A stretch of 64,000 bases of DNA from a virus: IMG/VR virus record IMGVR_UViG_3300011417_000001; one strand, 5' to 3'. This document shows, piece after piece, positions 16,951 to 44,493 of the stretch (positions are counted from its first letter, which is position 1; each line of letters opens with the position of its first letter). The position numbers were made by a program, and so were the translations under genes. The notes under the pieces are model-generated. The model searched no databases. It had not been told where the DNA came from and was given only the letters and a program-made list of their open reading frames with translations.

Positions 16951-17871
16951 TTAGTTTTCATATTTTTCTCTTAATGCTTTCGGAACAAGTGCGCTGCTTA
17001 CCGGGTAGAACTGGTGGTTACAATTATACCCCCCGCGCCTAATGAAAAGATTATCTGCCGAAGTTCCTTCAATCATTCCATGTGGCAAATCGTATCGTTT
17101 ATAAATCGCTACCTGATGCCCGCAAATTTGCCCGTCAACTAATTTAGCGAACTGCGAACGGTGAACGTAGGGCTGGCAGGTCTCTTTTGAACGAATCATT
17201 TCCTTGCACCACTCCCGCGAGGTTTCCATCAGCGAACCCACGTACTGAAACCACTCTAACCCTAAATCCGCTGTGGCGATTTGATTGTAGGAAGCATTGT
17301 ATTGATTAATCGAATCGGTTGTGATTTGCTTAGCGTACTTTACTAAAGCCCCGTCTCCGGCTCTCGTATCAGTAATGTACTGCCGCATCTGCTCTACGTA
17401 GTCCTCAAATCTTCCGCCTGATGTTATGTTTACCCGAAGTATCTCTCTTATTTTTTGGGTTACGTTTTCGCCTATCCCCGCTTCGGTAAGCGATGCCATT
17501 GTTTCATCAATGGTCTGCTTTTTTATTTCCCGGAATACCGGAGTGGGCTTGAATTTTTTGTTGATTGCTGAAAAGTACTGTCCGTTGATTTCTTCAACCG
17601 TGTCGTAGGCAGCAATAAACTCATCCAGTTTTTTCAGGTACGGCTTGCTGATAATGATTGCGTCAAGTTCTCTTTTTATCTGAGCTATTAGCCGGACATT
17701 TTTTACTGATGGTTTTATTCTGCCGTTGGCAATGTCAAGCTCTTTGCTTAGCTCAATAATTCTGGCAAATACCTGCTTCTGGGTTGCGGGTAAACTCTCG
17801 TTAAACTTGACCGTTGCCTTGTCAATCGAAGAAAGGATGTTTTTTATTAACTGGTCTGGGCTGGTTGCCAT
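16951..17871 (-). CDS. Minor head protein, Mu F / SPP1 gp7 family
   Basis: The C-terminal half shows WFQYVGSLMETSREWCKEM and a GGYNCNHQF ending typical of the Phage_Mu_F domain. The gene overlaps the stop of the portal-position gene. Confidence 0.7.
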   Translation of the reverse strand: MATSPDQLIKNILSSIDKATVKFNESLPATQKQVFARIIELSKELDIANGRIKPSVKNVRLIAQIKRELDAIIISKPYLKKLDEFIAAYDTVEEINGQYFSAINKKFKPTPVFREIKKQTIDETMASLTEAGIGENVTQKIREILRVNITSGGRFEDYVEQMRQYITDTRAGDGALVKYAKQITTDSINQYNASYNQIATADLGLEWFQYVGSLMETSREWCKEMIRSKETCQPYVHRSQFAKLVDGQICGHQVAIYKRYDLPHGMIEGTSADNLFIRRGGYNCNHQFYPVSSALVPKALREKYEN

Positions 17872-19661
17872 TATTCAACGGGGTCATTTGCCGGAGGTAT
17901 TACTTCTTCTTCTGTCTCTGTCGGCTGCATGGATTCTATTAACTCTTCGGCATATCTTCGAAGTATTTCAATCTGTTGTTTTTTAGGCAGCGTGTCAAAC
18001 TTCGCATTCTCTTCCATCGCCCGCTCGATAAATGAATGTATGTTGGCGTGAATTATAGAATCTGTTTTTTTGACTAATCCGAAAGCATCTCTTGAATTAA
18101 CTACATCTTCCGGTTGCCCGGCAAACGGGTCAAGGGCAAGTTTCATCGAAACTATCTTGCTTATCTTTTCGTCTGTGCTGAATCTTTTGGCAGCAAACTC
18201 TATCTCGGCAGCGTTTATTATTGCAGCGTCCATCTTAGCCTCTTTCATTGACCGTATTCTGTCTAACATAAATTCGTCTCCAAGCAGGTCAAACTTCTGC
18301 GGGACGTTGATTACCGGGAGCATCAATAGCCTTTTGGAATCGTCTTTTACAGAGGTTTTATAACGATAATCATTAATACAGAAAACAATGTTATCCAAAA
18401 GTTCTACCCCATCCTCTGCCACCCCATGAACGAAGTTGTTAAGTTCTTCTTTGTCAACCTCTTTCGCTAATCCGCTTTGATTTAGTGGTGTTGAGGCAAG
18501 AAACTCCATGTTGATTGAGGCGTATGCCTGAAAGAAGTGTCCTTCGATTCGCTCGCGCTGAATAGATACTATGCTTGTATCTTTGGTGATAAATCCGGCT
18601 GGTGGTGATGGCAGGTTGGTTTCTCCGGCAGGTGGTTTTCCAAGTACAAGATTTTCGTAAGGATTAAAAGGATAAATACCTTTTCCTCCACACATCCCGC
18701 AGGTTTCTTTGGAGGGCTTTGTCCCGGCCGCCTTACTCTTGTTTATCATTTCATACCCCGTCCCCCCACACCGCTTACAATCGTGAGGCTGGTACGCCCA
18801 AAGGGTAGAGTGAACATGCTGCACTACCTCTGCCTGCATATCAGAATACTCACGTGTTGCCTCGTCCAAAAATGGAATCATGCCCATTATCTTGCTTTCA
18901 TAGAGCGTCTGGTAGAGTGTTTCATTAAAGACTATTCCCTTCATATCATACACCGGCACATACCCCAACCCGTGTTTGTAGTTAAACGCCTCCCGGTACT
19001 GGTGGTCAAAACTGACTTGGTCGAAAGTCTGAATGTTTGTGTCAGTCACCACATAGTACCGGCAGCCGTTTGTATATTCTGTTCCGCTTTGCACGTACCT
19101 GATTTTCTCTATGCTTTTTAAAACATAGTATTTTTTGTACTCGTAATCAATAACATTTTCAGAGTTGTAAATAAATGGGTATGGTTTCAGGTACTCGTTG
19201 TCTTTAGCCTCTAAATTTATCGGCATCACAAATACCTTAGCGTTGGTATCTACTAACTGCTGCTTTAGCCCGATTTGAAAGTACCAGTTGGTAATGGAAG
19301 TATATTTTGGAAAGTTAAGGATAAGATAATCAAATAAGGTCTCCCCTTCTCTTACTGTTGATACGCTGCTGTCCTCCCCAAACTTTATAGACCAGTCTTG
19401 TGACTTACGTATCTTCATCAGCGAGTTATATACTTTCGTAAAACAGCTTTTAGTTACAGGTACGTAAATCTCTTCCCGGTATTTCTGAATCTTTTCGGAC
19501 TCGGATGGCCTGCGCTTGGTAAGCAAGTCTCCCGGCTTTTCCCCGTTGGCGTGTACTTTTATAGCGTGGTACTTCTTAACGCTCTGGTCGTAGAAAGGAT
19601 GGTAGTACTTTAGCTTGTCCGGCTGGATGTACTTGTTAAACTGGGCAATGGTAAATTCCAT
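17871..19661 (-). CDS. Portal protein (by position and size) carrying an inserted CxxCxGxG zinc finger
   Basis: 596 aa, directly upstream of the MuF-like gene. Residues 295-328 read CKRCGGTG...CGMCGGKG. Confidence 0.55.
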   Translation of the reverse strand: MEFTIAQFNKYIQPDKLKYYHPFYDQSVKKYHAIKVHANGEKPGDLLTKRRPSESEKIQKYREEIYVPVTKSCFTKVYNSLMKIRKSQDWSIKFGEDSSVSTVREGETLFDYLILNFPKYTSITNWYFQIGLKQQLVDTNAKVFVMPINLEAKDNEYLKPYPFIYNSENVIDYEYKKYYVLKSIEKIRYVQSGTEYTNGCRYYVVTDTNIQTFDQVSFDHQYREAFNYKHGLGYVPVYDMKGIVFNETLYQTLYESKIMGMIPFLDEATREYSDMQAEVVQHVHSTLWAYQPHDCKRCGGTGYEMINKSKAAGTKPSKETCGMCGGKGIYPFNPYENLVLGKPPAGETNLPSPPAGFITKDTSIVSIQRERIEGHFFQAYASINMEFLASTPLNQSGLAKEVDKEELNNFVHGVAEDGVELLDNIVFCINDYRYKTSVKDDSKRLLMLPVINVPQKFDLLGDEFMLDRIRSMKEAKMDAAIINAAEIEFAAKRFSTDEKISKIVSMKLALDPFAGQPEDVVNSRDAFGLVKKTDSIIHANIHSFIERAMEENAKFDTLPKKQQIEILRRYAEELIESMQPTETEEEVIPPANDPVE

Positions 19662-20551
19662 TATATGTGACTCCTTTCTTTGAGGTATTTTGATTTAGAA
19701 ACATTTTCAAATGTGGGCACTCCCCGGTAGTAGGCGTAGTGCTTTACTAAGTTGTCGGCTATCTTTTTTATGCGCTGTCCGATGTGCTTTCCGCCCAGCG
19801 ATATTCCGTAGTAGTTTTGCAAGATGTACTGGTCGTTCTTCTGACGGTGTAGCGGTTCCCAATAGGTAGGGTAGTACGGTATCGCGTGTGGCATCATGTT
19901 TAGTTTTAGCATCGCAAGACAGAAGGCAGGCTCGTCCGGCTTGCCCCCAGCAAACTGCTTGCATATCATTTTTTCATCATCATAGAATTGTCGTGCGGTG
20001 TTAAATAATTCACTCGTCTGCTCAGACTGTTTAAAGTAAATCCACTCGCTGCTTAAATCTATCCACTTTTCTATCCCGAAGTTTTCTTTCATCAGTGCCA
20101 TATCCACCCAGTCACTGTGGCCTGCGCTGATTGGGCTGCTTCCCCTGTTTGCCATCGTGAAGTTAATGTTTGCATACTCCTCAAATACTTGAGAAGGTTT
20201 TTTGTAGGGTGACCATACCATGTCTACATCGAGAAATAATGTTTCCTGAAACGGGCTTAACTTGTCAAGATAGAGCTTAGGTTTAACATAGCAGTGGTCT
20301 GTTCCGAACATGGAATAGTTGTAAGGACATTTAATTTTAATATCAAACAAGAACTTTTGCGCCTCGTCCAACTCAACTATTGAGCTTTCATTGTGAATCA
20401 GTGCAATCTTTAGTTCCGGCTCCATCTTTTTCAGTCCCACCGCAAGATTGACCGCAAAGCGTCCGTAGATGTGGTGCCCAAGTGCCATTAGTACAATGCC
20501 TCTTCCTGATTTATCGGGGCGGTTGGCGGTGTTTATTTCGATTATTTCCAT
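19661..20551 (-). CDS. Glycosyltransferase, GT8-like (GT-A fold)
   Basis: KPKLYLDKLSPFQETLFLDVDMVW matches the GT8 pattern around the DxD motif. The gene is embedded in the structural operon. Confidence 0.5.
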   Translation of the reverse strand: MEIIEINTANRPDKSGRGIVLMALGHHIYGRFAVNLAVGLKKMEPELKIALIHNESSIVELDEAQKFLFDIKIKCPYNYSMFGTDHCYVKPKLYLDKLSPFQETLFLDVDMVWSPYKKPSQVFEEYANINFTMANRGSSPISAGHSDWVDMALMKENFGIEKWIDLSSEWIYFKQSEQTSELFNTARQFYDDEKMICKQFAGGKPDEPAFCLAMLKLNMMPHAIPYYPTYWEPLHRQKNDQYILQNYYGISLGGKHIGQRIKKIADNLVKHYAYYRGVPTFENVSKSKYLKERSHI

Positions 20552-20555
20552 GTTT

Positions 20556-22505
20556 TTAGGTTGAACAATTTCGGTTAAATAAAACTTTCTCTATCCTCTT
20601 TTGAACTTCGATGGTTGATTGTGCTAAATTCCTTTTTCCTCTTTCCGCCCAGTTGGGTTCGTAGTCTTTAAAGATTACAAGGTACTCCACCCCGTCAATC
20701 TCGAATATGTCACACGGAATCATTCCGTTGCCCATTGTGTCGTGACCGTACTCGTCCATGTAGTCAAACAGCATCTCGTAATGTTTTTCTACTGAAGCAT
20801 AGATTCTCTTTTTTGTGCCGGTGCTGTAGGTATAATCCTCCCCCGAAATCGGGTAGGTTGGTGTCATGTACAGGGTTCGGAATCGCTGAATCAGCATAAA
20901 GATGTTGCCGTTATTACCAAAGTTGAATCCTAATGCAACCCCGTCCGCCCATGCTCTTATTCTCTTAGTACACGGATGTTGAGATGTGTAATTAATAATT
21001 GTATCTGATGTATATAAGAAAGGTATGGGGGGCGAACCCGGAGCATCGCAATAATCCCTAAACTCAACCCGGTAACAAGAGTATGGCAATTCAACGGGGA
21101 TGCCGCCAGAAAGAATAGCATCCAATGAAGTCACTCTCCATGTTACCCAATCCTCGTCATAATTAATCGGATTTGAGGATGAGTTTTCATCATGCCAGTC
21201 AGTTGCGCCTGAGCCATCTTCGTAAACTAATCTCATTTCGTAATCTCTTCTTAACTGGCAAAGTTCAATGGCCGGTAAGATGCAGCCATCAAAATCGGAT
21301 GATGGCGTAAACATTTCTCCGGCTGTTGTTAGTGCTGTAAAGTAGAAGTTGTAAATCCCGCTTTGGGTTATTGTTCCTAACTCTACTCCCCCGGCTTCTA
21401 CCACTAATTCCCCTTCTGTCATGCTTACCTGAATGGTCATCTTGTAATAATTCCCGATTGTAAGCGTGTTGCCTGCATAGAAAGCATTTACCCAAGTTAC
21501 CTCATGACAAAATCCATCCGTAGGATTGTATGACCATCCGCTTGCTGTTTGGGTGGCCGAAGCATCATCTACCGTACCGTCAAAACCACCTGTGGGAGAA
21601 AGCCTGAACAAGTCATCCGCTAAGTTTTGATTAGGGGAATTTATTGTCAGTACTCCATTTGCCGATGAGCTTGTTAAAGTAACTAACCCGAAAACCATTG
21701 TGAGCGTACCAGCGGTTCTTGCACTAATTGTTACCGCCCATAATATATCTGCTCGCTGCCGTTCGATATTTAACAGTTGAGTAACAGATGATGTTCCTGC
21801 TGGGGTAGTGTGAGTAACCGCATTGGCAGCGTATGTCCAACTGGAGTCAAATGTCCATCCTGTCGCGCCACCCGTAAATGCACCATTAGCAATATATTCC
21901 GTAGTTGAAGTGTCAAACGTATAACAAGACGCGATTTCTTTTACAGAAGCATTGGTAATTACTAACTCGCCTGTGTCTGGTACTGAATAATCGTTGTTGC
22001 TTCCAAAGGCCACTATCCCTGTAGTGCCTGCTACCCCGTAAATAATTTGCTCTCCGGTTGCATTTGCATCAATAGTCCCAGCCCTCCTGCCTCCTAAATA
22101 AACATCTACTCCATAGTTAGTCGAATTGCTTACTATGGTGATGGTTATCCTATAAGACTTCCCGGTTGTTATTGCAAGTCCTGATTGGCTTATTGATGGG
22201 GCTGCTCCTCCACCCGGTGGGGTTAGGGTGGCCTCTCCACCTGCTATTACCCACCCAGCATCGCATGTCCAATCTACCCCACACAAAGTAGAAAAATCTC
22301 CGGCAGTCACTAATTCAGCTCCAAGTTCATCTGCATCACAAGCCAAGTTGTCCCCACAGCAGTACTGCTTTGCCTGAAAGTTGAGCGGGTCTTCGGGTTG
22401 CATCAAAACAGCGTAGCCAGACAAGTCCTTGTTAATGCAGGCTTGGTCATCAAACTTTGCGGAGTTGAATCGTATAGGTTGGTTGTCTATAAAAGTAATT
22501 GCCAT
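20556..22505 (-). CDS. Structural protein with three tandem jelly-roll/CBM-like repeats
   Basis: Three repeats of about 110-130 aa share the patterns G.F....GW and Y.ItI.V...G.L.V..GG...GTI. Confidence 0.5.
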   Translation of the reverse strand: MAITFIDNQPIRFNSAKFDDQACINKDLSGYAVLMQPEDPLNFQAKQYCCGDNLACDADELGAELVTAGDFSTLCGVDWTCDAGWVIAGGEATLTPPGGGAAPSISQSGLAITTGKSYRITITIVSNSTNYGVDVYLGGRRAGTIDANATGEQIIYGVAGTTGIVAFGSNNDYSVPDTGELVITNASVKEIASCYTFDTSTTEYIANGAFTGGATGWTFDSSWTYAANAVTHTTPAGTSSVTQLLNIERQRADILWAVTISARTAGTLTMVFGLVTLTSSSANGVLTINSPNQNLADDLFRLSPTGGFDGTVDDASATQTASGWSYNPTDGFCHEVTWVNAFYAGNTLTIGNYYKMTIQVSMTEGELVVEAGGVELGTITQSGIYNFYFTALTTAGEMFTPSSDFDGCILPAIELCQLRRDYEMRLVYEDGSGATDWHDENSSSNPINYDEDWVTWRVTSLDAILSGGIPVELPYSCYRVEFRDYCDAPGSPPIPFLYTSDTIINYTSQHPCTKRIRAWADGVALGFNFGNNGNIFMLIQRFRTLYMTPTYPISGEDYTYSTGTKKRIYASVEKHYEMLFDYMDEYGHDTMGNGMIPCDIFEIDGVEYLVIFKDYEPNWAERGKRNLAQSTIEVQKRIEKVLFNRNCST

Positions 22506-24478
22506 TATTTAAGCATTTCCTGAGTTCCAAGCAAGGTAACATTCGCCATGCTTGTGTTGTGATTGTATTTTAAGGTGTCAATCCATCCCGCCTGTACCTT
22601 GTTCCCGTTGTAGGTAATCGCTATCTTCTGAAAGACGTTGTCTTCGATTGCGTAGAAGTCAGCGTTGGGAATTGGGTACTCGAAGTCGGCTTTTACTATT
22701 GGGATTTCGTTCTGATTATTCAGAGTTATAACTTCGCCACCGGAATCGGGTGCGCTTGTGCAGGCGAAGTAGGTTTCGTTGTTAGCACCCAAAACAACGA
22801 TGTAGGCCGAACCCAATCCTATTACAGCGTCTATTGTAACATCACACGAAATATAATCTCCTGCAAGACAATAAAATGATGCCTGATGAGTTATAATTGT
22901 AGTTTGAGGAACAGTGGTAGTATTATTGACGATGTCTAATACTCCACTTGCCTCTTGAAATATAGTGCCACTATTATATCGCTGGAATCCGTGTGAGATA
23001 GTTGCATACGATGAGGATGCCAATATTTGGAATTGGTGATAGAATGTGTGAGTTCCTTCTGCCACGCAAGTATATCTTGAATTGGCTTGTGATACAGGTG
23101 TTCCTTGTGCCGTACCATTTCCATAATTATTAACAACTCCATTACCATCGAAATTTGGAAAGTTAAAGTCATCATCAAATTGAAATGGGAAATAAGTTGT
23201 ATAGCTAATGGCAATAATATTTATATTAGCTGTATGAGCTGCTCTAAACAAATTATTGACTGTCCCTGTAAAGTTTACAATGCTGTTCGGTATTTGGCTG
23301 TTCCACCTTTCTAACACTTCGTTATTCATTAACCTTGTGTTGTAGAAGTATGGAGGAGCGGAGGCGAATGGGTTTCCGGGTATAGCCGTGCTTGTATATC
23401 CGCTTCCGGAAACAGTTACATCTTCGCAGTCAACAAAGAATATTTCTTCGGCAAAGTTGGTTGTTGGCTGAATAAGCAAATCCTCTATCATGTTGCTCGA
23501 AATAACATAGCTGCTCATCAGGTCAAGACGGGCATCAATGTTGCACTGCTCAAGTGTAGTGTAGTTTTCCGGTTTGTAGGTAAAGTATAAATTGCTCTCT
23601 ACAAACGATACTCCATTTCCGGGAAGCGCATCCAGAATCTTATCCGAACCTACAGAGATAATCGCTACCAGTTTTGATGTGTCTATTTTAAACTTTACCC
23701 CGTTTACGTTTTCAAGTTTTCTAACGATGGTGTTTAAAAACAAGTCCTGATACTTTTCGATTCTCAGTACAGGTACATTTCCTGTAGTGTCTATGTAGAA
23801 AGTGACGTTTATTTTCTTTTTTACTTCCTGAAAAAACTTGTCAAATGAGGCTTTGATGGCTCCGCCCGTTCCAAAGAATGCTATCTCCTGTCCGTACATA
23901 ACGGAAAGTCCTTCAAACTCCCCGCCCAATCCAAATAGGTTAGAATCAAAAGCCACTTCATCATCACTCATAAAGGCTATCATGTTCTTAAATACATCAT
24001 AAACACGGTAGCCTGTTCGTGGGTCGGTTATTGCTGTCGGGCCAACTGAATCGGGTTTAAACATCGTGATTGTATTCTCTGCCGCTGCATCAATCGTTTC
24101 TCCGTTCTTGCTTCGGGTAGTGTCTACTGTTATCTCAATAGATTTGTTTTTATTAATCCGGGCGTAGAAGTTGTTGTCCTGAACCGGGGCGGTGATGATG
24201 CAGTTGGAGTCTTTCTCTATCTCAAGAATAAAAATCTTCCCTATAAATATCCGTATGTCTTGTCCATCACAGTTATCCCATATTTCACAGGCTATCTCCG
24301 CGCAAAAACCGCTAGTGTCAATTACGCCTTGTATCAAATCAAATCCATCACCATGCCATTTTAGCTTCGCATCGTTGGTAATTAGAAATCCTCCAAGCTG
24401 TGAGTCCCGCTTAATGGTTGTCAGGATGTCGCCATCAGGTTCATCGTTTATAAAGGTGTTATTTAGGTAAAATTTCAA
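22505..24478 (-). CDS. Tail tip/baseplate-position protein
   Basis: 657-aa ORF overlapping the tape-measure stop. Assigned from position only. Confidence 0.4.
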   Translation of the reverse strand: MKFYLNNTFINDEPDGDILTTIKRDSQLGGFLITNDAKLKWHGDGFDLIQGVIDTSGFCAEIACEIWDNCDGQDIRIFIGKIFILEIEKDSNCIITAPVQDNNFYARINKNKSIEITVDTTRSKNGETIDAAAENTITMFKPDSVGPTAITDPRTGYRVYDVFKNMIAFMSDDEVAFDSNLFGLGGEFEGLSVMYGQEIAFFGTGGAIKASFDKFFQEVKKKINVTFYIDTTGNVPVLRIEKYQDLFLNTIVRKLENVNGVKFKIDTSKLVAIISVGSDKILDALPGNGVSFVESNLYFTYKPENYTTLEQCNIDARLDLMSSYVISSNMIEDLLIQPTTNFAEEIFFVDCEDVTVSGSGYTSTAIPGNPFASAPPYFYNTRLMNNEVLERWNSQIPNSIVNFTGTVNNLFRAAHTANINIIAISYTTYFPFQFDDDFNFPNFDGNGVVNNYGNGTAQGTPVSQANSRYTCVAEGTHTFYHQFQILASSSYATISHGFQRYNSGTIFQEASGVLDIVNNTTTVPQTTIITHQASFYCLAGDYISCDVTIDAVIGLGSAYIVVLGANNETYFACTSAPDSGGEVITLNNQNEIPIVKADFEYPIPNADFYAIEDNVFQKIAITYNGNKVQAGWIDTLKYNHNTSMANVTLLGTQEMLK

Positions 24479-26607
24479 TTTCTTAGCGGGGAGTTGTAAC
24501 TGTATTCGCTCATGTATCTTGCTACGCTTCGCCCAATCCTATCGGCTTGTTCTGGTAGTATCTTTCGATTGGCTCTTGTTAGTTTTCCTGAATCCATAAA
24601 CGCCTCTACCTTTCCAAAGTTGTGATTTATAGCAAAGGAGTTGAGGATTTCGGGATTGATTAGATTCTTCCTGATGGCTAAAAGTGTAGGCTCAAACTTG
24701 CGTGTTTCGGCTGCTGTCATTACCGATTCTCCCCTGCTTAACATCGCGGGAATGCTGTCGGATGTTTCTGTTCCATGTCCTTCTAATCCTATTACTCCTT
24801 TTTTAAATTTAGGAACTGGGGCGGATAGAATTGCGCTGGTTTGGAGTGCCCCGAAAGCTATTGCAAGTGCCGAAAGTATTCCGGGTGGAATAGTTGCAGC
24901 AAATAGCTTAACTGCATTTTCGGCTGTCTGTATTGCTACTCTTATCAGAGAGGCTGTTCGGTCTGCGATGAATGCTTTGCGTTTTTCATCCGCTATCTTT
25001 TTGTTGAGTTCCTTTTCTGTTGCTTCTCTCTGTTTCGCTAACTCCTTTTGCTTTTGCGCATATAACCCATCCGATATGATTTTATTATTGTTTAGCTCTT
25101 CAAGTCTTTCCTCCTCTTCATCAAATGCCTCTAATCTTCGGTCTTTCTCTGCGTTTAATTGGTCTACATTAGATTCAAATCCTACTGCTAATGTGGTAAA
25201 CAAATCAATAAACATTTCTTTGCCTTGTTCGGTAAAACTTTCCAGCGCAGCCAGCCCCTCTTTAGTAAATCCTATTTCTGCCCCTAAGATATTTTTAAAT
25301 GCCAACTCACCTGCTTTACCAAACTCCTGAGTTTTTACTTTAATTAAATCAAGTTTGTCGGGTAGCTCATTAATCGGCTTCATTGATTCTTTAACCGAAT
25401 CAATCATTTTTTGAATCGCATTAATAGAATCGGTTGGTATTACATTTTCTGCCCTCTCCTCTTGTAATGCAGCATTAAGTTGGCGCTGTAAGATTAATCG
25501 GTTGTTAAGAATGTCTAATACTGTTTGTGTAGATTTATTGTAAGCATCTGTACTCTTTACGTTATCCCGAAGGATGCGCTGATATTTTAAATCAATATCA
25601 TTCTGCTTTAATTTAAGGGCTAATATTTCCGATTGCTTGCCCCCGGTTTCTTCCAATAACTTTATCTGCCGTTCCAAATCTTTTACTACTGCATTCCCCG
25701 CTAACCTTTTTTCCTGAGCAGCGGTTATGGCATCATCGAATTTAAGGTTCTTTTCTAATTGTTTATTGTACGCTTCCTGCGCTGCCTCCGCCCGCTCTGA
25801 TGCGCGTGTTACAGCATAGTAAATGGTTACCAGTGTAGCTAATGCGGCAACTACTATCCCAATGGGGTTGGCCAGCATAATTGCCGTAAGTCTGGCTTGT
25901 GCGGTTGCTAATACATTTGTAGCCGTTGCCCCCGCTACCTGAGTTGTGTTGAGTGCAGTTTGGGCAGTAGCGGTTATTCCTAAAAGTATTCTAAGGCTTG
26001 TAAAAGCATCTTTTAATCCAAGAACCGATTGAAGTCCCTGAGTGAGAGCTAACGCTGCCTGAACTTTTAATAATGCCTTTTGAACATCCTCTGATTCTTC
26101 TCCAAACAATGCCATCGCCCCCTGTGCAGCAGCAAATCCACCAGCAATACCTGTACCTAATTGAAGAAATGCACCTAATTTTTGTTCAGGATTAAGGTTT
26201 CTTATTACCTTATTTAAATCATCCATCTTGTCCTGCAATTTTCCTGCTGAACGAGCTGCTTCAATAGCCTGTGGCGAAAATTCGCCCATTGTTTGAGCAA
26301 GCCGCGCTGCTTCAACCTTCGCTTCAGCTACCTGAGACCTTAATGATTTAAAAGCGGTAGTGGTTTTTTCTGCCTCTTTAGATGGGCTTGGATTCTTTTT
26401 TCCTCCAGGCAAACTATCCGAAAGTTTCGTTGCCTCCTCTGCCGCCTTCTTTGATTCAACCGCTAACTTAGCCGATTGGTCAGCAAGTTTCTTGAACTCC
26501 TCAGCATCCTTAGCCGTAATCTGTCCAAGTTTTACCAATAGGTCAATGGTAGGCTTCATGGCCTCCGCATTTGACGACACATTAACAACTATATTTTCTA
26601 CTGCCAT
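24475..26607 (-). CDS. Tape measure protein
   Basis: 710 aa with long Ala/Lys/Glu coiled coils and Gly/Ala-rich hydrophobic blocks (GTGIAGGFAAAQGAMALFG, IGIVVAALATLVTIYYAV). Confidence 0.75.
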   Translation of the reverse strand: MAVENIVVNVSSNAEAMKPTIDLLVKLGQITAKDAEEFKKLADQSAKLAVESKKAAEEATKLSDSLPGGKKNPSPSKEAEKTTTAFKSLRSQVAEAKVEAARLAQTMGEFSPQAIEAARSAGKLQDKMDDLNKVIRNLNPEQKLGAFLQLGTGIAGGFAAAQGAMALFGEESEDVQKALLKVQAALALTQGLQSVLGLKDAFTSLRILLGITATAQTALNTTQVAGATATNVLATAQARLTAIMLANPIGIVVAALATLVTIYYAVTRASERAEAAQEAYNKQLEKNLKFDDAITAAQEKRLAGNAVVKDLERQIKLLEETGGKQSEILALKLKQNDIDLKYQRILRDNVKSTDAYNKSTQTVLDILNNRLILQRQLNAALQEERAENVIPTDSINAIQKMIDSVKESMKPINELPDKLDLIKVKTQEFGKAGELAFKNILGAEIGFTKEGLAALESFTEQGKEMFIDLFTTLAVGFESNVDQLNAEKDRRLEAFDEEEERLEELNNNKIISDGLYAQKQKELAKQREATEKELNKKIADEKRKAFIADRTASLIRVAIQTAENAVKLFAATIPPGILSALAIAFGALQTSAILSAPVPKFKKGVIGLEGHGTETSDSIPAMLSRGESVMTAAETRKFEPTLLAIRKNLINPEILNSFAINHNFGKVEAFMDSGKLTRANRKILPEQADRIGRSVARYMSEYSYNSPLRN

Positions 26608-26614
26608 TGGGTGA

Positions 26615-26989
26615 TTATGGTGTTAAGCCTAAATCTGTAAGCTGTTCTGAACTTAATTTGGTTTTAATCCACTTCTTTTTTAATGCTGATTGGTCAAGTT
26701 CATTCTGCGTGTAGAATGCTGTTTCGGTTATTACCGGCACTATCGGGTAGGTAATTTCTACTTTTATACCATTGGCATTGGTAACTACTTTAAGTTCTGA
26801 CGGGAATACTCCTTTATCTCCCTGTAACTTTTTAAGAATGCCAAGCCATTGTTCTGCATCGGTTCTGTTTTTGAATTTCAGAAACGGCTGCTCAAATTCT
26901 CCGAATATAAGGTTAGAATAAACAATCCTGTATTTGGCATCCGCCTGCTCAATAACTCCTTCTAATGATACTTCGTAGTATGATGTCAT
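26615..26989 (-). CDS. Tail assembly chaperone-position protein
   Basis: 124-aa ORF immediately upstream of the tape measure. No productive frameshift partner was found. Confidence 0.35.
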   Translation of the reverse strand: MTSYYEVSLEGVIEQADAKYRIVYSNLIFGEFEQPFLKFKNRTDAEQWLGILKKLQGDKGVFPSELKVVTNANGIKVEITYPIVPVITETAFYTQNELDQSALKKKWIKTKLSSEQLTDLGLTP

Positions 26990-26993
26990 GTTT

Positions 26994-28676
26994 TTACATT
27001 GTTAGCCACAACCTCCAGTAACTTGCCCCTGAAAGCGGTGTGCCTGTGTTATAAAATGCGAGCTTTGTTCCATCAGCAAGGTAGCCGAGCGATATAAACG
27101 CCCACCGTGCCGCGCTGAAACCGCCACTGCCGGAGATGCTTGGTATTCCCGCGATTTTTTCTATCCTTCGGCTTTGGCAGTCAAATCTTATAAATGGCCT
27201 TTGATAGGTGGATGCAACGGTTGAGTTTCCAACACAGAAATACATATATCTCCCGTCCTGTGTATGAGGGTTGTAGGCTACATGAAGGCAGTCAGTTGCT
27301 ACAATAGTGTCCGATGTCGCGCCTCCTGCCCAATCAACTATTGTTAAAGCGTTTGTCCAGCTTCCTGTTGCCGCTCCCGCAATGTCGAATAAATCATAGG
27401 TAGTAGTCGCGCCCCTGAATAAAAAGATATTACTTGATTTAACAGCGTTGATTTCATCAGCTACCATTCCGAATGCGAACCAGCCAAATGCGCCTGTGGT
27501 CTGCGTTGTCGTCCCCTTTACCGCCCATGTGGTTGTGTCCCACTGGTTAGAGGTATTTACTGCGGTGTAGTTATTGGCGATGGTGTAATTATACATCGTT
27601 GTTGTGCCTCCGAAGAATCCGAGAATATTATCCGTCCAGTTTTCAATTACATACTTTGCTGTTGCTGATGGTGTAACCGTCCAATTTGTCGTTCCTGATG
27701 AAATGGTGTAAACCGGGGATGCCCCTGCGGTGTGGCTGATTATCCTGCGCCTCTGTCCTACTGCTGTTGGCGTTCCGGTGTCCTCAACAATTCTTATTTG
27801 ATAATTGCGGTACTGATTTACTAACACTGCCGCATCTCCGCCTGCCGCTTGTCCAGTTATCGTTGTCGCTGCGATTGCCGTTGCTGTCAGGCATTGCAAG
27901 GTAGTTCCGTTTATATCGCTGCCGTAAGTTGATGTTCCTAAATATCCCTCTCCTGATTTTCTATCGTGTGGCACATATCCTTCGTCCGTTGCTACTAAGA
28001 AATTGCCAGTTGTCGGAACGGTTGCTATTAAGTTTGTAGTGCCTAATGATGATAGTGATGCAGTTAAACAATCATATCTTCTCCACTGATTTGCCGCGAT
28101 TGCACCTGTGCCTAAATATAAATAACTCCCTGAAAGAAATTCGTATCGGTCATTGGCGTTTGGTGCGGTTGGTAGGGCGGACTCTAAAATGATTGTCGGT
28201 GTAGTGCTTGAGGTGTTGGCTACACATCTGCGCTCGGATATAACCCCTGTCACGATATTAATTATTCTAATAATAAATCCTTTGCCATCACCCCTGTCAG
28301 CTAATTGATTTTCGCCTACTGTTGCCGGTAGTGCGGTGCTTAATACTACCTTAGTGGTTGTTCCGCCTGCTGCTAATACTCCTGATGGAGATAACGCGGG
28401 GCTGAATACTGCTGTGTTGCCAGCCCCGAATCCGCCCCCTGCTCCGAAAGTAGTGTTAATCTGCCCCCACGAATCGTGCATAATATTATACCCGTATTGT
28501 GCGGATGCCGTTCCATTAAGATATACTATCGGGTGGTTGTAGCCGTTATTGCGTAAATCCTCTGCTGACCAGTACCCGCTTCCTACTGCTGTTATTGCCG
28601 CCATTACCGGCTGTGATAATAGTTCCCATTCGTGGGTGTCGAGGACTTCTATATGTTCATTTATTGATGCTGGCAT
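26994..28676 (-). CDS. Thr/Gly-rich structural protein in the major-tail position, possible beta-propeller
   Basis: 560 aa with recurring blocks of about 45-60 aa containing aromatic-x-hydrophobic strands and W/Y (RYEFLSGSYLYLG, KYVIENWTDNILGFFGG, IFLFRGATTTYDLFD, RYMYFCVGNS, LAFYNTGTP). Confidence 0.4.
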   Translation of the reverse strand: MPASINEHIEVLDTHEWELLSQPVMAAITAVGSGYWSAEDLRNNGYNHPIVYLNGTASAQYGYNIMHDSWGQINTTFGAGGGFGAGNTAVFSPALSPSGVLAAGGTTTKVVLSTALPATVGENQLADRGDGKGFIIRIINIVTGVISERRCVANTSSTTPTIILESALPTAPNANDRYEFLSGSYLYLGTGAIAANQWRRYDCLTASLSSLGTTNLIATVPTTGNFLVATDEGYVPHDRKSGEGYLGTSTYGSDINGTTLQCLTATAIAATTITGQAAGGDAAVLVNQYRNYQIRIVEDTGTPTAVGQRRRIISHTAGASPVYTISSGTTNWTVTPSATAKYVIENWTDNILGFFGGTTTMYNYTIANNYTAVNTSNQWDTTTWAVKGTTTQTTGAFGWFAFGMVADEINAVKSSNIFLFRGATTTYDLFDIAGAATGSWTNALTIVDWAGGATSDTIVATDCLHVAYNPHTQDGRYMYFCVGNSTVASTYQRPFIRFDCQSRRIEKIAGIPSISGSGGFSAARWAFISLGYLADGTKLAFYNTGTPLSGASYWRLWLTM

Positions 28677-28955
28677 TTATCGTGTAATTAATTGGCTGTT
28701 TCTTGTGTTAATCATTATCTTGTTCTGAAAATAAATTGAAAAGGTCTGGTCAACTAATCCTGAACCTGCTGTGGTGAAGGCTACTGAGCCGCTTATTGGC
28801 AGCGTGCCGGCTGATGCGCCCGGTGTAATTTTTACCATCCCTATCTCATTTGTATAAGACGGGGTGTTGGCAACCTGAATTAGTTTTTTTAGCCCTATGA
28901 TAATGCTATCAAGATGCTCTATTGTTTCCTGTTCTCGTGTGAATCCTTGTGACAT
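28677..28955 (-). CDS. Hypothetical structural-operon protein
   Basis: 92-aa ORF whose stop abuts the next ATG. Confidence 0.4.
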   Translation of the reverse strand: MSQGFTREQETIEHLDSIIIGLKKLIQVANTPSYTNEIGMVKITPGASAGTLPISGSVAFTTAGSGLVDQTFSIYFQNKIMINTRNSQLITR

Positions 28956-28959
28956 GTTT

Positions 28960-29289
28960 TTAAGTTATTAGTACTCCAAATAAATTAAATGATAATCGGG
29001 TATTGCCAGCATAAACTCTTATTACGTCCGTTGCATCAAGCGTTATTCCTACGGTGGCTATAAAGGTATCATTGGCAGGAATAGGCACATCGTAGTATAG
29101 GTATTGTTCGTTGGCATCTGCCGCCCCGTTTGGGGCTACTGATACCCGGAAGGTGGTAGCAGAAGCATCCCTGTTGCACACCACTACACTGCTTATAACG
29201 CACTCTGTCGCTGCCGCAATGGTAAGTATATCCGTTAAGGTTGTTGCTGCTGGTGCGCTTTGTGCTAATACTCTTCTAAATTCTGCCAT
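28960..29289 (-). CDS. Hypothetical structural-operon protein
   Basis: 109-aa ORF, tightly packed. Confidence 0.4.
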   Translation of the reverse strand: MAEFRRVLAQSAPAATTLTDILTIAAATECVISSVVVCNRDASATTFRVSVAPNGAADANEQYLYYDVPIPANDTFIATVGITLDATDVIRVYAGNTRLSFNLFGVLIT

Positions 29290-29290
29290 C

Positions 29291-29614
29291 TTACATTCCT
29301 CCTAACATCATGTGTTTCCAATATTCCTCGTCTATGCTGGTTAGTTGTGATATTAACATTGCGTCTATCGCGGCTTTTAGTGCTGCGGCCGAGGCAGTTG
29401 CCGGAGCTATTATGCGGTTAAAGTCCAGATAGTAAACCCGCTCTCCCTCGTTTATCTCGTACCAGTGCCACTTGAATAATACTATATTCGGGTCGTTAGG
29501 GTCAATGTATGTCTCCACATACGCCTTTTTAACGTAAACAAACTGGCCTTCTACCGTTAGCTGAAGGTAAATGGGGCTGTAGTCTACTATGCTTGTTACG
29601 TTGCTTGTTGGCAT
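29291..29614 (-). CDS. Hypothetical structural-operon protein
   Basis: 107-aa ORF. Its ATG directly follows the TAG of the -1 frame extension (TAGATG). Confidence 0.4.
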   Translation of the reverse strand: MPTSNVTSIVDYSPIYLQLTVEGQFVYVKKAYVETYIDPNDPNIVLFKWHWYEINEGERVYYLDFNRIIAPATASAAALKAAIDAMLISQLTSIDEEYWKHMMLGGM

Positions 29615-29914
29615 CTACTCTTCCGACCAGGAGCCGGCTTTTGCAGGTTTTATATTTTTGGTTTTTTCAAGAAAGTCATTTACAAGAACAAAGTAGTCGT
29701 AGAGGGTATGGTATTTCGTGTCCGTGTTGTATCGTGCGCCTATTTCGTGCCGTTGAGTGAAGAAACTTCTTCGCGTGTTGCCGATTGCTTGCCAGAAGTG
29801 GCTTTCGATTGGTATTTTAGTATCTTCTCCAGTGTCGTTTGACAGGTTTGATAAATCTCTTTTGATAATTTTGGCAAGGGTATCAAACTGTCGAGCTGCT
29901 GATACAAAAAAAAA
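29615..29914 (-). other. -1 frame extension ORF (99 sense codons, no ATG/GTG/TTG) that opens exactly at a T9 slippery run
   Basis: On the - strand, GAT TTT TTT TTG (plus-strand A9 at 29906-29914) gives the heptamer T TTT TTT in the zero frame. The -1 frame is closed by TGA TGA immediately before the run. It then stays open to the TAG at 29615-29617. Confidence 0.5.
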
Positions 29915-30372
29915 TCATCAACATCCCCGTTTTTCTTCCATGTCGCTATCTTTTTCTGCGAGTATGTCTCGTTGTAGGTGTAGGGGCTTTCGTTCTCATC
30001 AAAGTAGGCTACTGCTGCCATTTTATAGATAAGATTCTTTGGCGGGATAACAAAGTTTACCCGCTCCTCTAAGAAGTTAAGCACCCGGCTTACTTCAAGT
30101 ATCTGTATCGGGTTAGAATTACACAGCTTTTTAAACTCTTTGACAAACTCTTTTAAGGTAGTAACCTCTATCCTCATACTTATCTCTTCATACACCTGAT
30201 ACGCATCTAATCCACGTTCAGTAAACGTATCAAACATGTCATGCAGCTTGTAGTATGGCTTTCCCCCTGAATAAAACGCTACATCAACAATGTGCCCGGT
30301 CTGTAATTCCCACTTCTTGCGCTTGGTGAAGATTAGTTTAAGGAGATGCTGTATGTATTTCCATTTTGTCAT
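29740..30372 (-). CDS. Hypothetical protein (zero-frame product, 210 aa) containing the candidate frameshift site
   Basis: The ORF overlaps the stop of the upstream 65-aa ORF. A 125-nt apparent gap follows its own stop. Confidence 0.5.
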   Translation of the reverse strand: MTKWKYIQHLLKLIFTKRKKWELQTGHIVDVAFYSGGKPYYKLHDMFDTFTERGLDAYQVYEEISMRIEVTTLKEFVKEFKKLCNSNPIQILEVSRVLNFLEERVNFVIPPKNLIYKMAAVAYFDENESPYTYNETYSQKKIATWKKNGDVDDFFLYQQLDSLIPLPKLSKEIYQTCQTTLEKILKYQSKATSGKQSATREEVSSLNGTK

Positions 30373-30569
30373 CAGTACTGTTTTATTGTTTCAATTAGCT
30401 TTTCATCTGTTGACTGTATTATCTTTGAGTTCTTTCGCCCTAACCAGAAAAGGTTGTTTTGATAGTAGTGGTATAGCTTGTACAGCCCCTTTCGATATAT
30501 TTTTCCTTTCATTGCGCAGTTGCAGTACCCGTGCCATGCCCAGCCTAAGTTGATGATTTGCTCGTGCAT
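30372..30569 (-). CDS. Hypothetical protein
   Basis: 65-aa ORF, Cys/His/Tyr-rich. Confidence 0.35.
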   Translation of the reverse strand: MHEQIINLGWAWHGYCNCAMKGKIYRKGLYKLYHYYQNNLFWLGRKNSKIIQSTDEKLIETIKQY

Positions 30570-30577
30570 TCACGTTT

Positions 30578-30739
30578 TTAGATTGTTTCTGTTGGATTGG
30601 GGTCGGGTTTTGGCGGTTCGTTGGGTAAGAAGTTTGTAAGTTTAATTCCATCCACATTAACCCCAATTGATTTTAAATAATTAACACAGGCGATTGCCTT
30701 TGATTTTGTGTCCTGAAATTCTTTTGTTTCTTCTGTCAT
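30578..30739 (-). CDS. Hypothetical small protein
   Basis: 53-aa ORF found by hand (MTEETKEFQDTKSKAIACVNYLKSIG...). It has an ATGA overlap with the upstream stop and ends 8 nt before the next ATG. Confidence 0.35.
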   Translation of the reverse strand: MTEETKEFQDTKSKAIACVNYLKSIGVNVDGIKLTNFLPNEPPKPDPNPTETI

Positions 30740-31044
30740 TTAATATTTGTTCTATAATATTCAATACAACTATTTATTAATGTATTTAATGCGCTTAACC
30801 CAAATACATAAATGATATACACTAAGGCGTTATGAAGATTAAGTTCGTAGTTGTACCAATAGATGTAAGTTGAGTGGACGCTCGCCATGCATGTGGGACA
30901 ATCGTATAGCGGTTTTTTAATATACTCCGGTAAATTGTGGCACAAATTGTCTACCCATGCGTTGACTTCGCCCTCCTGTGTGCTGAGGTGAAAGCCGATA
31001 ATGAATAGAGAATTAAAGATGAGTAACAGAATTAATTCGCTCAT
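30736..31044 (-). CDS. Membrane protein
   Basis: Hydrophobic segments ELILLLIFNSLFIIGF and ALVYIIYVFGLSAL. Confidence 0.4.
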   Translation of the reverse strand: MSELILLLIFNSLFIIGFHLSTQEGEVNAWVDNLCHNLPEYIKKPLYDCPTCMASVHSTYIYWYNYELNLHNALVYIIYVFGLSALNTLINSCIEYYRTNIK

Positions 31045-31165
31045 GCTTTTGATTTATAAATCCGCTTGCGCTTTTTCTTTTTGGCTTTTGCCTCTGTTTT
31101 CATTGGTTCGTAGTTGTAAAGCCATGAATGAAATTTGTCGGGCTTTGTACTGGTGATGACATGAT

Positions 31166-31840
31166 TCATGCTATCTCAGTTGTGTAGTTAAGGTTAAGTG
31201 TCAGGCAGTCGTAAATTGCGTAGCCAATGGTGAATGTTACAGTCTGGTTATTAACATTGTTTATAAATACGGTGATTGCCCCGAAGTCAGGGGTGAAGAA
31301 TCCTTCTGGAAAGTTGGCTACTCTTATGGTGAAGGAGCCATCTGCTTCGGTAGTTACTGTTTGTGAGTACTTGTTCCCGTGAAGGTCGGTGAATATTAGC
31401 GTATAGTCGGTGGCCGCTTGTAGGTCTAAATCTATTACATAATTTCCGTAACAAGAAATGAGGTCGTAAGGATAACAACTTGCACAGCCAGTGGTTTCGG
31501 CTACGACCTCGTACCATGCTGCGCTGGCAAGGTAAATGGTGTCTGCCCCGTCTCGGTAGTAAACATCAACCTGCTTACCTAAGAAAAGCGCAATGTCAAT
31601 GTCACGGGTTATTTGAAGTATTGGGTTTTGATTCGATGCGATGAATCCGCTGCCCCCGGTGTTTATGCAGGTTAGCAGTTCGTTGAGGAATGTATTTAAG
31701 CTCATCCCTGTCCAGTCCTGTGAATTGGTGCATAACGTGTAGACTACCCCGTAAATATCAGTAGTCTCAATGTAAAGTGTCTGTACTCCTGTCGGTAAGG
31801 TTACGCCCGTAAAGTCTAATTCCGCAATGATTTGCGCCAT
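31166..31840 (-). CDS. Hypothetical virion-module protein
   Basis: 224-aa ORF downstream of the large terminase. Confidence 0.4.
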   Translation of the reverse strand: MAQIIAELDFTGVTLPTGVQTLYIETTDIYGVVYTLCTNSQDWTGMSLNTFLNELLTCINTGGSGFIASNQNPILQITRDIDIALFLGKQVDVYYRDGADTIYLASAAWYEVVAETTGCASCYPYDLISCYGNYVIDLDLQAATDYTLIFTDLHGNKYSQTVTTEADGSFTIRVANFPEGFFTPDFGAITVFINNVNNQTVTFTIGYAIYDCLTLNLNYTTEIA

Positions 31841-31933
31841 AGGTGAAATTGGTAAGGTTTACGCTATTTCCCGGTGGCGGGACAGAAAAGTGTATTTCCG
31901 AAAAAAACGGACGTTGCGAATATATAAACTATT

Positions 31934-33151
31934 TCAATACTTTAAAAAGGTTTTGTGAAAAGTATTTAACAAATATCTTACACAATCAAGTAGGTGTGTT
32001 TGGTGCTTGTCTTTTGTCTTGTCAATGTCGCCTTCGGAATCTACCTCGCAGTATATCATGTCTTCGATTAAGTATTCACAAGAGGGGTCAATATTTATTT
32101 CTCCGTTCTGCAAGATGGAGTTCATAAGTACTCTTGTATCTTGCGCTGCCGGATTAACTGCGGGTTGTTTCATCTGCGTGTCTACCAAATTTAATTCTTT
32201 TTTTATTACCGAGTAGTAGTTAATGTTTCCTCTCGTTAGTGCGCTGCGGTTGTGCCCGGTTGCGTCACCTGTGATTATAAACACTGAATCAGGATAGGCT
32301 ACTTTTATTCTTTGACATAGCTCATAAATATCAGATTGTTCAAGCCTAAATTCTTTGATGATGTTTACTTTTCCTGTTTCTGTTGACTGCGCGGCAATGC
32401 AGGTTATCGGGTCAACGTTAAAATCGAACGCTAACTGTAAATACTCCTGTGGATTGTACTCGCACTCTTTGATGTGCTTTTCTTTTGAGAATGCATAGGC
32501 AAAAGGATTAAGTGAAAGGTCAACGTCATCCGCCATGAACTCGCACCTAAATGTCATGCTGTCTAATTGATGCTTGACTGTTTCTATTTCCGCATGGTCT
32601 ATAAATGGATTGTCGTAGGTGGTGAATTTAAACGCTGCCCAATCATCATACTTTGTGCAGGTTCGGAATAGCTCTTTAAAGTAGGTCTTGCCGAATTTAG
32701 GTGTAGATAAAAACCATGCCGTCCCTTTGTAGTCGGTTAGTGTTGCTCTGATGGTCTGCTCCCACGCCTCTTTAAACTTGTTTGCCTTCTCGCACTCGTC
32801 AACTATTACAAGGTGGTACTTTCTCCCCCTGCCTGAATCGGGGTTGTCCATTGACCAGATGTCAAGCGTTCCGTTGGTTATCGTTGTTATCTGTTTTACC
32901 TGTTCGTCCTTTGACCTGATGACTTCAAAAAGGGTGTTCTTGAGCATGTTCCATGTCTCGTAAACATCTTTGTAGGTCGGGGCGTAGTAGGCTACATATT
33001 TGCCGTCTAAAAGCGCATTTACTGCAAGGTCTGTGGCGATTTCAGTCTTCCCCCACCGTCTTCCGCATTTAAGAACGTTAAACCGCTTCTGCCCCTGTAT
33101 TACTTTCTCCTGATTCGGATGGAGGGTTTTCAGGTTTATCGTTAGCTCCAC
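31934..33151 (-). CDS. terL: Terminase large subunit
   Basis: Walker A-like CGRRWGKT near the N-terminus and Walker B LVIVDECE. The C-terminal part looks nuclease-like (DFNVDP, ITGDATG). Confidence 0.85.
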   Translation of the reverse strand: MELTINLKTLHPNQEKVIQGQKRFNVLKCGRRWGKTEIATDLAVNALLDGKYVAYYAPTYKDVYETWNMLKNTLFEVIRSKDEQVKQITTITNGTLDIWSMDNPDSGRGRKYHLVIVDECEKANKFKEAWEQTIRATLTDYKGTAWFLSTPKFGKTYFKELFRTCTKYDDWAAFKFTTYDNPFIDHAEIETVKHQLDSMTFRCEFMADDVDLSLNPFAYAFSKEKHIKECEYNPQEYLQLAFDFNVDPITCIAAQSTETGKVNIIKEFRLEQSDIYELCQRIKVAYPDSVFIITGDATGHNRSALTRGNINYYSVIKKELNLVDTQMKQPAVNPAAQDTRVLMNSILQNGEINIDPSCEYLIEDMIYCEVDSEGDIDKTKDKHQTHLLDCVRYLLNTFHKTFLKY

Positions 33152-43161: not shown

Positions 43162-44493
43162 TTAATTATTAATAAGGTCACGCATTGGTTCAGCTAATTT
43201 CTTATAAATAGGATTTTTATCATTCGTTACATCTATAAAAGTTGTAAATCCACCTTCCGATTTATCGCCAAAATAAAAACGAGTTTTGTTGCTTACTAAT
43301 GTATTTGCCTTACTGAACTTGGAAAGGGCTTGAATCAGATATGGCGAATGTGAACTAATTACAACAGGTATTCCACTTGCGCATAAACTCACAATGATTT
43401 TAGCGTATTCAATTTCCCATTGTGGGTGCAAGTGAACCTCTGGTTCATCTATAATTAATAGCGAGTTTTGATTAACGTATGTAGGATTTAGTAATAATTG
43501 GAGTAATCCTAATGATTTTACTCCAGTAGCTATGTTAAAAGCCCGGACAATAGCTCCATTGTTTTTTATAAAAACTATTCCACCCTCATCACTTTTAAAT
43601 TTCATTTCTCCAGAAATAACAGATTTAATCATTTTAAATATTTCCGCAAAGACATCACTACTAACAGGAGGTGAAATTTTAACTTTTTGAGAAATGTCAG
43701 AATAGTGCAATGGTAAATCCCCTCGCTGATTTCCCGTTGGGGAAAATGCTAAACTATTAGTAATAAATTCTGCCAACTGTACAATCGTTGGCGTTTCAAT
43801 TATTGTTGCATCTTTTAAATAGAACGGATTGTCAACCTTAAATGATGAAGTTAAGTTTTTTTCTACTACAAGTTTAAGAATAGACGTTACCCCTTCTTCA
43901 ATATTAATACTAAGTTCATTGTCTGTTAAAAGTGAATTAATTTGACTTTGAAATATTCTTTGAATGATGTTTCTGTCAAAATATGTTTTATATTTTGCTT
44001 CATCCGTTGGAATATCCTCTAAAGTCTGAATAATTTTTTTTTCGTATATGTTGATATTTAAAATTGCATCTTCAAACCTCTTTTTCGTGGAATCAGGTGC
44101 GTTTACTTTGGTTGATTCTAAATCCTCCTTTACTTTGACAATATATTCCCTAACCTCGTTTGCAAGTTCGGCATTAACTGATTGCACTCTGCCAATGTAA
44201 AGATTTACTAATTTTTGAACTAAAATATTCGTATTAAATTTTTGAGCCTTATCTTGAGTGAATGGAATAACAGACCTATGGGACGAATTAATATTATTTA
44301 AATTGTTCGTTGACTGGGAATACTTCTCGATATTCATAAAAGTATCGGCATTATTTATTGTTTTAATAATCGAATAAATACCTTTGCTTATAAAAGATTT
44401 CCCTGTATCATTGGTTCCGGTTATAACAGTTAGTCCATTAACTTCAATAGAAGCCTCTTTAACAATGCCGAAATTTTTAAAAATGAATTTCAT
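43162..44493 (-). CDS. ABC-type (AAA_15/AAA_21-like) ATPase
   Basis: Walker A GTNDTGKS at aa 26-33, Walker B/D-loop LLIIDEPEVHLHPQW, and H-loop VISSHSPY. Confidence 0.85.
   Translation of the reverse strand: MKFIFKNFGIVKEASIEVNGLTVITGTNDTGKSFISKGIYSIIKTINNADTFMNIEKYSQSTNNLNNINSSHRSVIPFTQDKAQKFNTNILVQKLVNLYIGRVQSVNAELANEVREYIVKVKEDLESTKVNAPDSTKKRFEDAILNINIYEKKIIQTLEDIPTDEAKYKTYFDRNIIQRIFQSQINSLLTDNELSINIEEGVTSILKLVVEKNLTSSFKVDNPFYLKDATIIETPTIVQLAEFITNSLAFSPTGNQRGDLPLHYSDISQKVKISPPVSSDVFAEIFKMIKSVISGEMKFKSDEGGIVFIKNNGAIVRAFNIATGVKSLGLLQLLLNPTYVNQNSLLIIDEPEVHLHPQWEIEYAKIIVSLCASGIPVVISSHSPYLIQALSKFSKANTLVSNKTRFYFGDKSEGGFTTFIDVTNDKNPIYKKLAEPMRDLINN

Follow-up and report, generated by a model that had tools for sequence, protein, structure and literature searches.

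The 64,000-nucleotide stretch of viral DNA analysed here (the window; IMG/VR record IMGVR_UViG_3300011417_000001) carries on its minus strand a gene of 210 codons followed by a 125-nt gap, in a block where neighbouring genes mostly overlap or nearly touch. A run of nine T's lies within this gene. The initial annotation proposed that a programmed −1 frameshift on this run extends the protein through the gap, following the logic of the G/GT tail chaperones, and named the conservation of the run and of the −1 frame in related phages, together with purifying selection on that frame, as the observations by which the proposal could be judged. Does this gene encode two proteins and, if so, what is their function? 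Comparison with relatives confirms that the candidate is a true recoding site, of a type already known and conserved to a very high degree, and that it belongs to a large protein family absent from the catalogues. We consider it highly probable that the long-tailed, uncultured Bacteroidota phage from which the window derives encodes its tail assembly chaperone in this gene (30372..29740) and obtains two proteins from one start.

Anatomy of the gene and its slip site

The features of the gene are the following.

29740..30372, minus strand: 0-frame gene with its ATG at 30372, encoding the short, G-like product of 210 aa
29908..29914, minus strand: slippery heptamer, T TTT TTT, of X XXY YYZ type and in phase, with which the T9 run (29906-29914) begins
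29615..29914, minus strand: −1 frame extension, 99 sense codons and a TAG, encoding the predicted C-terminal 'T-like' domain of a 252-aa long product
29743..29907, minus strand: dual-coding overlap of 55 full 0-frame codons, with constraint on both the 0 and −1 frames
29618..29739, minus strand: part read solely in the −1 frame (the 'gap' of the initial annotation), used for pN/pS
29291..29614, minus strand: next gene, 107 aa, the first of an inserted cassette, whose ATG abuts the −1 stop

In the 0 frame the slip site reads GAT TTT TTT TTG, position 29914 being the third base of GAT. Upstream of the T9 run, the −1 frame is closed by two adjacent stops, TGA TGA; from the run onwards it remains open for 99 sense codons, none of which is ATG, GTG or TTG, and it terminates at a TAG (29617-29615) that abuts the ATG of the next gene at 29614 (TAGATG). 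Each of these anatomical statements had been made in the initial annotation and each was confirmed. The same applies to the size of the shifted product, estimated there at about 155 + 96 aa and computed here as 252 aa, with 155 shared residues followed by 97 codons read in the −1 frame. The predicted junction peptide of this long form is ...DVDDFFFVSAAR...

The probability that such an open frame arises by chance had been put at well under 1 percent. The order of magnitude was right, though the figure was slightly optimistic: in 20 genes of the window, the −1 frame was open for at least 99 codons at 1.3% of the in-frame positions (median open length, 10 codons), which makes the anatomy alone suggestive, not decisive. 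The 125-nt gap (29615-29739) is the largest uncovered gap of the block; another gap, of 93 nt, is present at 31841-31933.

The slip site is located 57 codons ahead of the 0-frame stop (family median 56; 5th to 95th percentile, 41-74). Each form therefore has its own conserved C-terminal module, and about 165 nt of DNA are dual-coding. The gene is predicted from this layout to give two products, a short 0-frame form and a longer form reached by a programmed −1 shift into an ORF devoid of a start of its own.

Conservation of the site and the route into the second frame

Using the fused sequence as a query, we found 19 close homologues, all of them 196-221 aa long and corresponding to the 0-frame product. 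The 0-frame C-terminus is conserved among them (DVDDFFLYQQL..LIPLP.LSKE.Y, with P165, P167, L169 and S170), indicating that the short form is a real protein rather than a truncated fragment. The DNA of 15 relatives sharing 42-100% amino acid identity was recovered from IMG/VR, JGI and Logan contigs. The in-phase heptamer was present in every close relative for which enough sequence was available, as T9 in the clade of the window and as exactly T7 in a second clade, and was followed by a −1 frame of 85-102 codons ending 0-20 nt ahead of the start of the next gene. The single exception, L011, has an early −1 stop situated 11 nt from the end of its contig. The −1 products of both clades align without any internal gap, and their amino acid conservation begins at the heptamer itself.

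A profile search of 1.84 billion representative proteins retrieved 763 clusters (50% identity) at E ≤ 0.001. Further scans raised the total to 281 loci, and 160 distinct homologues were used for the family statistics. A scan of isolate-genome contigs with a sub-alignment chosen more centrally gave 25 loci, as against none with the close alignment. Of the 160 homologues, 158 had the heptamer T TTT TT[T/C] in phase (141 with an aligned T TTT TTT, 11 with T TTT TTC and 6 with the site one codon later, as G/C TTT TTT TTT); the remaining 2 could not be placed because of an alignment gap. Among the 158 members, the T run was most often T9 (91), followed by T7 (38), T6 (11), T8 (10) and T10 (2). A −1 frame of 85-115 codons was present in 152 of the 154 untruncated relatives. 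From the site onwards, the median open length was 97 codons for the −1 frame (5th percentile, 86) and 6 codons for the +1 frame; upstream of the site, the −1 frame was open for only 3 codons (family median). Furthermore, a single HMM of the −1 domain matched 154 of 158 −1 products.

Both reading frames bear the mark of selection. Past the 0-frame stop, pN/pS in the −1 frame amounted to 0.22 in clade 1 and 0.29 in clade 2, the other two frames giving values of 0.95-2.5. Within the overlap, values of 0.6-0.85 were obtained for both the 0 and the −1 frames. The pS of the 0 frame was 0.875 (clade 1) and 0.715 (clade 2) over the 57 codons upstream of the site, and 0.37 and 0.34, respectively, in the overlap. 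Such a halving of the 0-frame synonymous divergence from the slip site on is what a second reading frame starting there would be expected to leave. Conservation of the slippery run and of the −1 ORF, and purifying selection on the latter, by which the initial annotation had proposed to judge its candidate, were all strongly positive.

Codon usage at the site also departs from the background. All 14 close relatives compared use TTT for both Phe of the site, whereas TTT represents 54% of the Phe codons elsewhere in the same genes, and the codon preceding this pair always ends in T, as against a T third base in 57% of Asp/His codons in the background. Family-wide, where Leu follows the two Phe (29905-29907 in the window), its codon is TTG or TTA in 91 of 91 cases and never CTN, for a background of 56% TTR and 44% CTN.

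A long product could also arise at the level of transcription, if slippage of RNA polymerase on the T9 run introduced an extra U in some of the transcripts, which would then be translated normally. Runs of 9 A or T are classic sites of bacterial transcriptional slippage, which is used by Shigella mxiE (PMC5009743), and the present site resembles these in that a nine-base tract joins overlapping frames into an extended product. The predominance of T9 in the family, the occurrence of T10 variants and the invariable TTR codon for Leu, which keeps the run at 9, would be in keeping with such a mechanism. Yet, the TTR codon could equally result from selection for the T9 run or from a requirement of the −1 frame for an aromatic residue, Phe or Tyr, at this position (FFF or FFY). 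Unlike what is expected for transcriptional slippage, many relatives have only T6 to T8 tracts, and those with T7, T8 or the T6 site T TTT TTC keep the full −1 domain, whereas short runs slip poorly. Moreover, the phase of the heptamer is X XXY YYZ in every case, a constancy that slippage of RNA polymerase would not need. The combination of a run length that varies from 6 to 10 and a phase that is constant favours a ribosomal slip involving tandem tRNA-Phe as the common mechanism. We consider it unlikely that RNA polymerase is the main source of the long product; its slippage would be at most an added contribution at the sites of this family, and it may contribute too in the T9 version found in the window.

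No consensus pairs that would point to a stimulatory RNA structure were detected with RNAalifold in sets of 11 and 96 non-redundant sequences, and the z-scores for single-sequence RNA folding were near 0 (median 0.09). In phage lambda, the long-to-short ratio is roughly 1:30. A similarly low ratio would fit the weak shiftiness of U_UUU_UUU, which proved a much weaker shifter than A_AAA_AAG in E. coli reporters (PMC5009743).

Neighbourhood of the gene and its probable function

The genes surrounding the frameshift gene in the window include the following.

31934..33151, minus strand: terminase large subunit (phrog_2 at 3e-36; Pfam Terminase_6N)
26615..29289, minus strand: rest of the variable cassette, genes of 109, 92, 560 and 124 aa, recognised by comparison with L014, L015 and L016
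24475..26607, minus strand: tape measure protein, 710 aa (phrog_9959, phrog_18891, phrog_8462)
17871-19661: portal, 596 aa

Four small genes (224, 102, 53 and 65 aa) lie between the terminase and the frameshift gene. Over 17871-33151, the terminase is followed by the tail chaperone and the tape measure; next come two large tail proteins and a glycosyltransferase-like gene, with the portal and head genes only after these. The order terminase, 2-4 small ORFs, chaperone and tape measure recurs family-wide. In the N-terminal third of the tape measure, residues 31-275 match two long PHROG profiles, phrog_971 (labelled endolysin, 1.4e-15) and phrog_21917 (unknown function), and residues 213-369 and beyond match tape-measure PHROGs. 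The window also contains three further 9-base T tracts (58-66, 44034-44042 and 54459-54467), the second of which is inside a minus-strand ATPase gene (43162-44493) and reads A9 on the coding strand.

According to the initial annotation, the site lay four genes upstream of the canonical position of a tail chaperone. This part of the proposal has to be revised. The window's subclade has acquired a five-gene cassette (26615-29614), to which the 124-aa ORF immediately ahead of the tape measure also belongs; the odd position of the frameshift site is thus due to an insertion, not to displacement of the site. L014 shares the five genes (about 107, 109, 80-92, 560 and 104-124 aa). At the same position L015 has one 208-aa gene, which shares its N-terminal 93 aa with the 107-aa gene of the window, L016 has three different genes, and other relatives have none. 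Homologues of the window's tape measure sit directly after the frameshift gene in relatives. As for the cassette itself, its 560-aa protein bears a Kelch motif and its 109-aa protein has a weak match to a tail-fibre PHROG; it may be an accessory or host-recognition hotspot.

At the family level, an ORF of at least 600 aa (600-1118 aa) starts at the −1 stop in 51 of the 88 loci with enough flanking DNA, the median gap being 0.5 nt. Ten of these ORFs were sampled; tape-measure PHROGs were matched by seven of them, with E values down to 9e-59, and by none of the other three. Judged from these gene orders, the frameshift gene is adjacent to the tape-measure gene in the family at large, with five genes intervening in the window itself, and the G/GT analogy put forward in the initial annotation is supported by the position of the gene directly upstream of the tape measure in most relatives.

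We searched for homology to known chaperones. No tail-chaperone family was revealed by Pfam and PHROG, whether the query was one of the two products or one of 109 family members, and a PDB profile search of the family gave chance-level matches only, with nothing convincing. Comparison of the region by blastn, and of three family members by tblastn, with 50,697 GenBank phage records yielded no match. The shared/short form and the −1 domain were modelled with AF2 as two separate parts. The short form is modelled (pLDDT 76) as an N-terminal helix, a beta hairpin at residues 27-45 and seven helices, after which the tail is disordered; for the −1 domain (pLDDT 63) the model has three helices. When these models were compared by Foldseek with PDB and BFVD, no match had an E value below 0.3; the HK97 chaperone 2ob9 came up only at E = 5.4. 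There is no homology, of sequence or of fold, to a catalogued chaperone family (Phage_TAC_*, PHROG or 2ob9) in these searches, and the frameshift protein represents a large family matching no Pfam, PHROG, PDB or cultured-phage entry. To our knowledge, the known chaperone families are themselves mutually unrelated in sequence, so that the absence of homology does not exclude a chaperone role.

The frameshift could be genuine and the protein nonetheless be another two-form morphogenesis factor encoded beside the tape measure. This would agree with the lack of similarity just described, with the size of the short form, which at 210 aa exceeds that of typical G proteins and includes a conserved C-terminal module of its own, and with the unusual order of the modules, in which the terminase is followed by tail genes and then by the portal. 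In addition, no tube gene is recognised upstream: none of the 2-4 small genes between terminase and frameshift gene matched a tail-tube family, though a divergent tube protein may be among them. Against this, the sequences of known tail chaperones vary very widely, and a −1 pair ending on the start of the tape measure is the defining signature of the chaperone in long-tailed phages (Xu, Hendrix and Duda 2004, as cited in PMC5009743 and PMC3091744). Furthermore, no other frameshifted pair was seen in the 51 loci where the pair directly precedes the tape measure. A role other than that of tail assembly chaperone appears quite improbable to us.

Both forms of G/GT pairs are needed for tail assembly and are absent from virions; their shared part binds the tape measure and their −1 domain binds the tube. 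If the present gene is a tail assembly chaperone, most ribosomes would read through the site and make the 210-aa short form, while a minority, with two tRNA-Phe on U UUU UUU, would slip back by one base, read 97 more codons in the −1 frame and make the 252-aa form, with a different, three-helix C-terminal domain; this long form would terminate exactly at the start of the next gene. If the parallel with lambda gpG/gpGT and P2 E/E+E' holds, the tape-measure protein would be coated by the residues that both forms share, and the tail tube protein would be recruited by the −1 domain; a fixed low rate of slippage would set the ratio of the short and long forms.

In lambda, gpG and gpGT are produced by a −1 frameshift at G GGA AAG (Levin, Hendrix and Casjens 1993; Xu, Hendrix and Duda 2004, 2013, 2014; as summarised in the review PMC5009743). 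The gene described here resembles this system in that one start would serve two products with a common N-terminus, in its −1 slip on an in-phase heptamer for which no stimulatory RNA structure seems needed, in a long form that ends at the start of the next gene (family-wide, the tape measure) and in an arrangement that is kept across very divergent relatives. It differs from lambda by the absence of detectable sequence or fold similarity, by a short form of 210 aa versus 140 aa for gpG, by its all-U heptamer, by the lack of a recognised upstream tube gene and the five genes that precede the tape measure in the window, and by the distance of 57 codons from the slip site to the 0-frame stop, which leaves each form with a C-terminal module of its own. 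The slip site is also unusually far from the end of the short ORF when compared with annotated actinophage (SEA-PHAGES) chaperones, for which the mean distance is about 26 nt (PMC10885494).

The P2 pair gpE/gpE+E' results from a −1 frameshift at T TTT TTG (Christie et al. 2002, as cited in PMC3091744), and no RNA structure is reported for this TTTTTTG site (PMC3091744). Like the P2 site, the present one is a U-rich heptamer that would be read by tRNA-Phe, with no downstream hairpin, in a pair located just upstream of the tape measure. Unlike P2, in which the heptamer is T TTT TTG, the sequence is T TTT TT[T/C], usually extended to T9, and the proteins are unrelated, P2 E and E+E' having 91 and 142 aa.

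Natural fusions and the reach of the family

Two weaker explanations do away with frameshifting altogether. The 125-nt gap might be an independent small gene or be translated by reinitiation, and gene callers do sometimes put a 45-aa ORF in it (L015). Yet, besides the lack of ATG, GTG and TTG in the −1 frame of the window, there is no ATG anywhere in the −1 ORF of 50 of 152 relatives, and only 18 have one within the first 30 codons; the amino acid conservation of the −1 product, which sets in at the heptamer, also argues against this explanation, which we regard as very improbable. The other explanation takes a single 252-aa ORF to be the true gene, here in decay as a pseudogene or broken by an error of sequencing or assembly in the homopolymer. 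The error-prone character of A9/T9 tracts on some sequencing platforms and the existence of one T10 prophage and one metagenomic protein with fused ORFs speak for it, but it has a negligible likelihood and is already refuted by the comparative data, since the layout in two frames recurs in more than 150 independent assemblies, two of them complete isolate chromosomes, and persists with T6, T7 and T8, and since the 0-frame C-terminus past the site is conserved as protein family-wide.

The isolate genomes deserve mention in this respect. T9 and the −1 ORF are found together in prophages of Limibacterium fermenti and Niabella insulamsoli, whose genomes are the complete chromosomes referred to above, and of Danxiaibacter flavus and two Dysgonomonas; among the isolate genomes examined, only the T10 prophage departs from this pattern. 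Cultured hosts carrying the family include Limibacterium fermenti me31, Niabella insulamsoli N803 and Dysgonomonas alginatilytica DSM 100214. Their presence in isolates excludes the homopolymer error that the initial annotation had itself listed as an alternative. The host phylum is Bacteroidota, the window originating from an uncultured Bacteroidota long-tailed phage.

The fused ORF of the T10 prophage occurs in Proteiniphilum sp. X52 (L277, NZ_RDSD01000002.1). The T10 tract, at 8408-8417, results in a single ORF of 247 aa, which runs from ...AFFF into the −1 domain, and the short form is lost; the locus is identical to IMG/VR locus L077. The metagenomic protein P0094 (256 aa) likewise carries the fusion in frame. 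These natural fusions show, as far as predicted ORFs go, that the junction expected from a −1 shift can yield a coherent protein. The T10 tract of Proteiniphilum sp. X52 could be a real variant in tract length or a SPAdes homopolymer or assembly error.

A more speculative scheme, which we hold to be rather improbable, is that the site does more than fix a ratio by ribosomal slippage. The long overlap would endow the short form with a functional C-terminal module of its own, and the two products would then be adaptors with alternative heads instead of 'G' and 'G plus T'; slippage of RNA polymerase would add to the long form, and heritable changes between T9 and T10, of the sort seen in the Proteiniphilum prophage, would switch a prophage between the production of both forms and that of the long form only. 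The preferred reading remains that of a tail assembly chaperone made in two forms by a ribosomal slip.

For this family, annotation would be directly affected. In at least 763 clusters (50% identity) from Bacteroidota phages and prophages, gene callers give the 210-aa form alone and either leave a gap after it or place a spurious 45-aa ORF there; as only the short form is reported, the −1 domain is missing from protein databases. Where the structural genes of a phage have hardly any matches, the chaperone pair would provide a reliable landmark for finding its tail module. Bacteroidota are a phylum that does not rely on Shine-Dalgarno pairing. For recoding research, the family offers a large natural series of U UUU UU[U/C] sites, from T6 to T10, without stimulatory structure, and the overlap of about 165 nt, constrained in both frames, is of interest to the same field.
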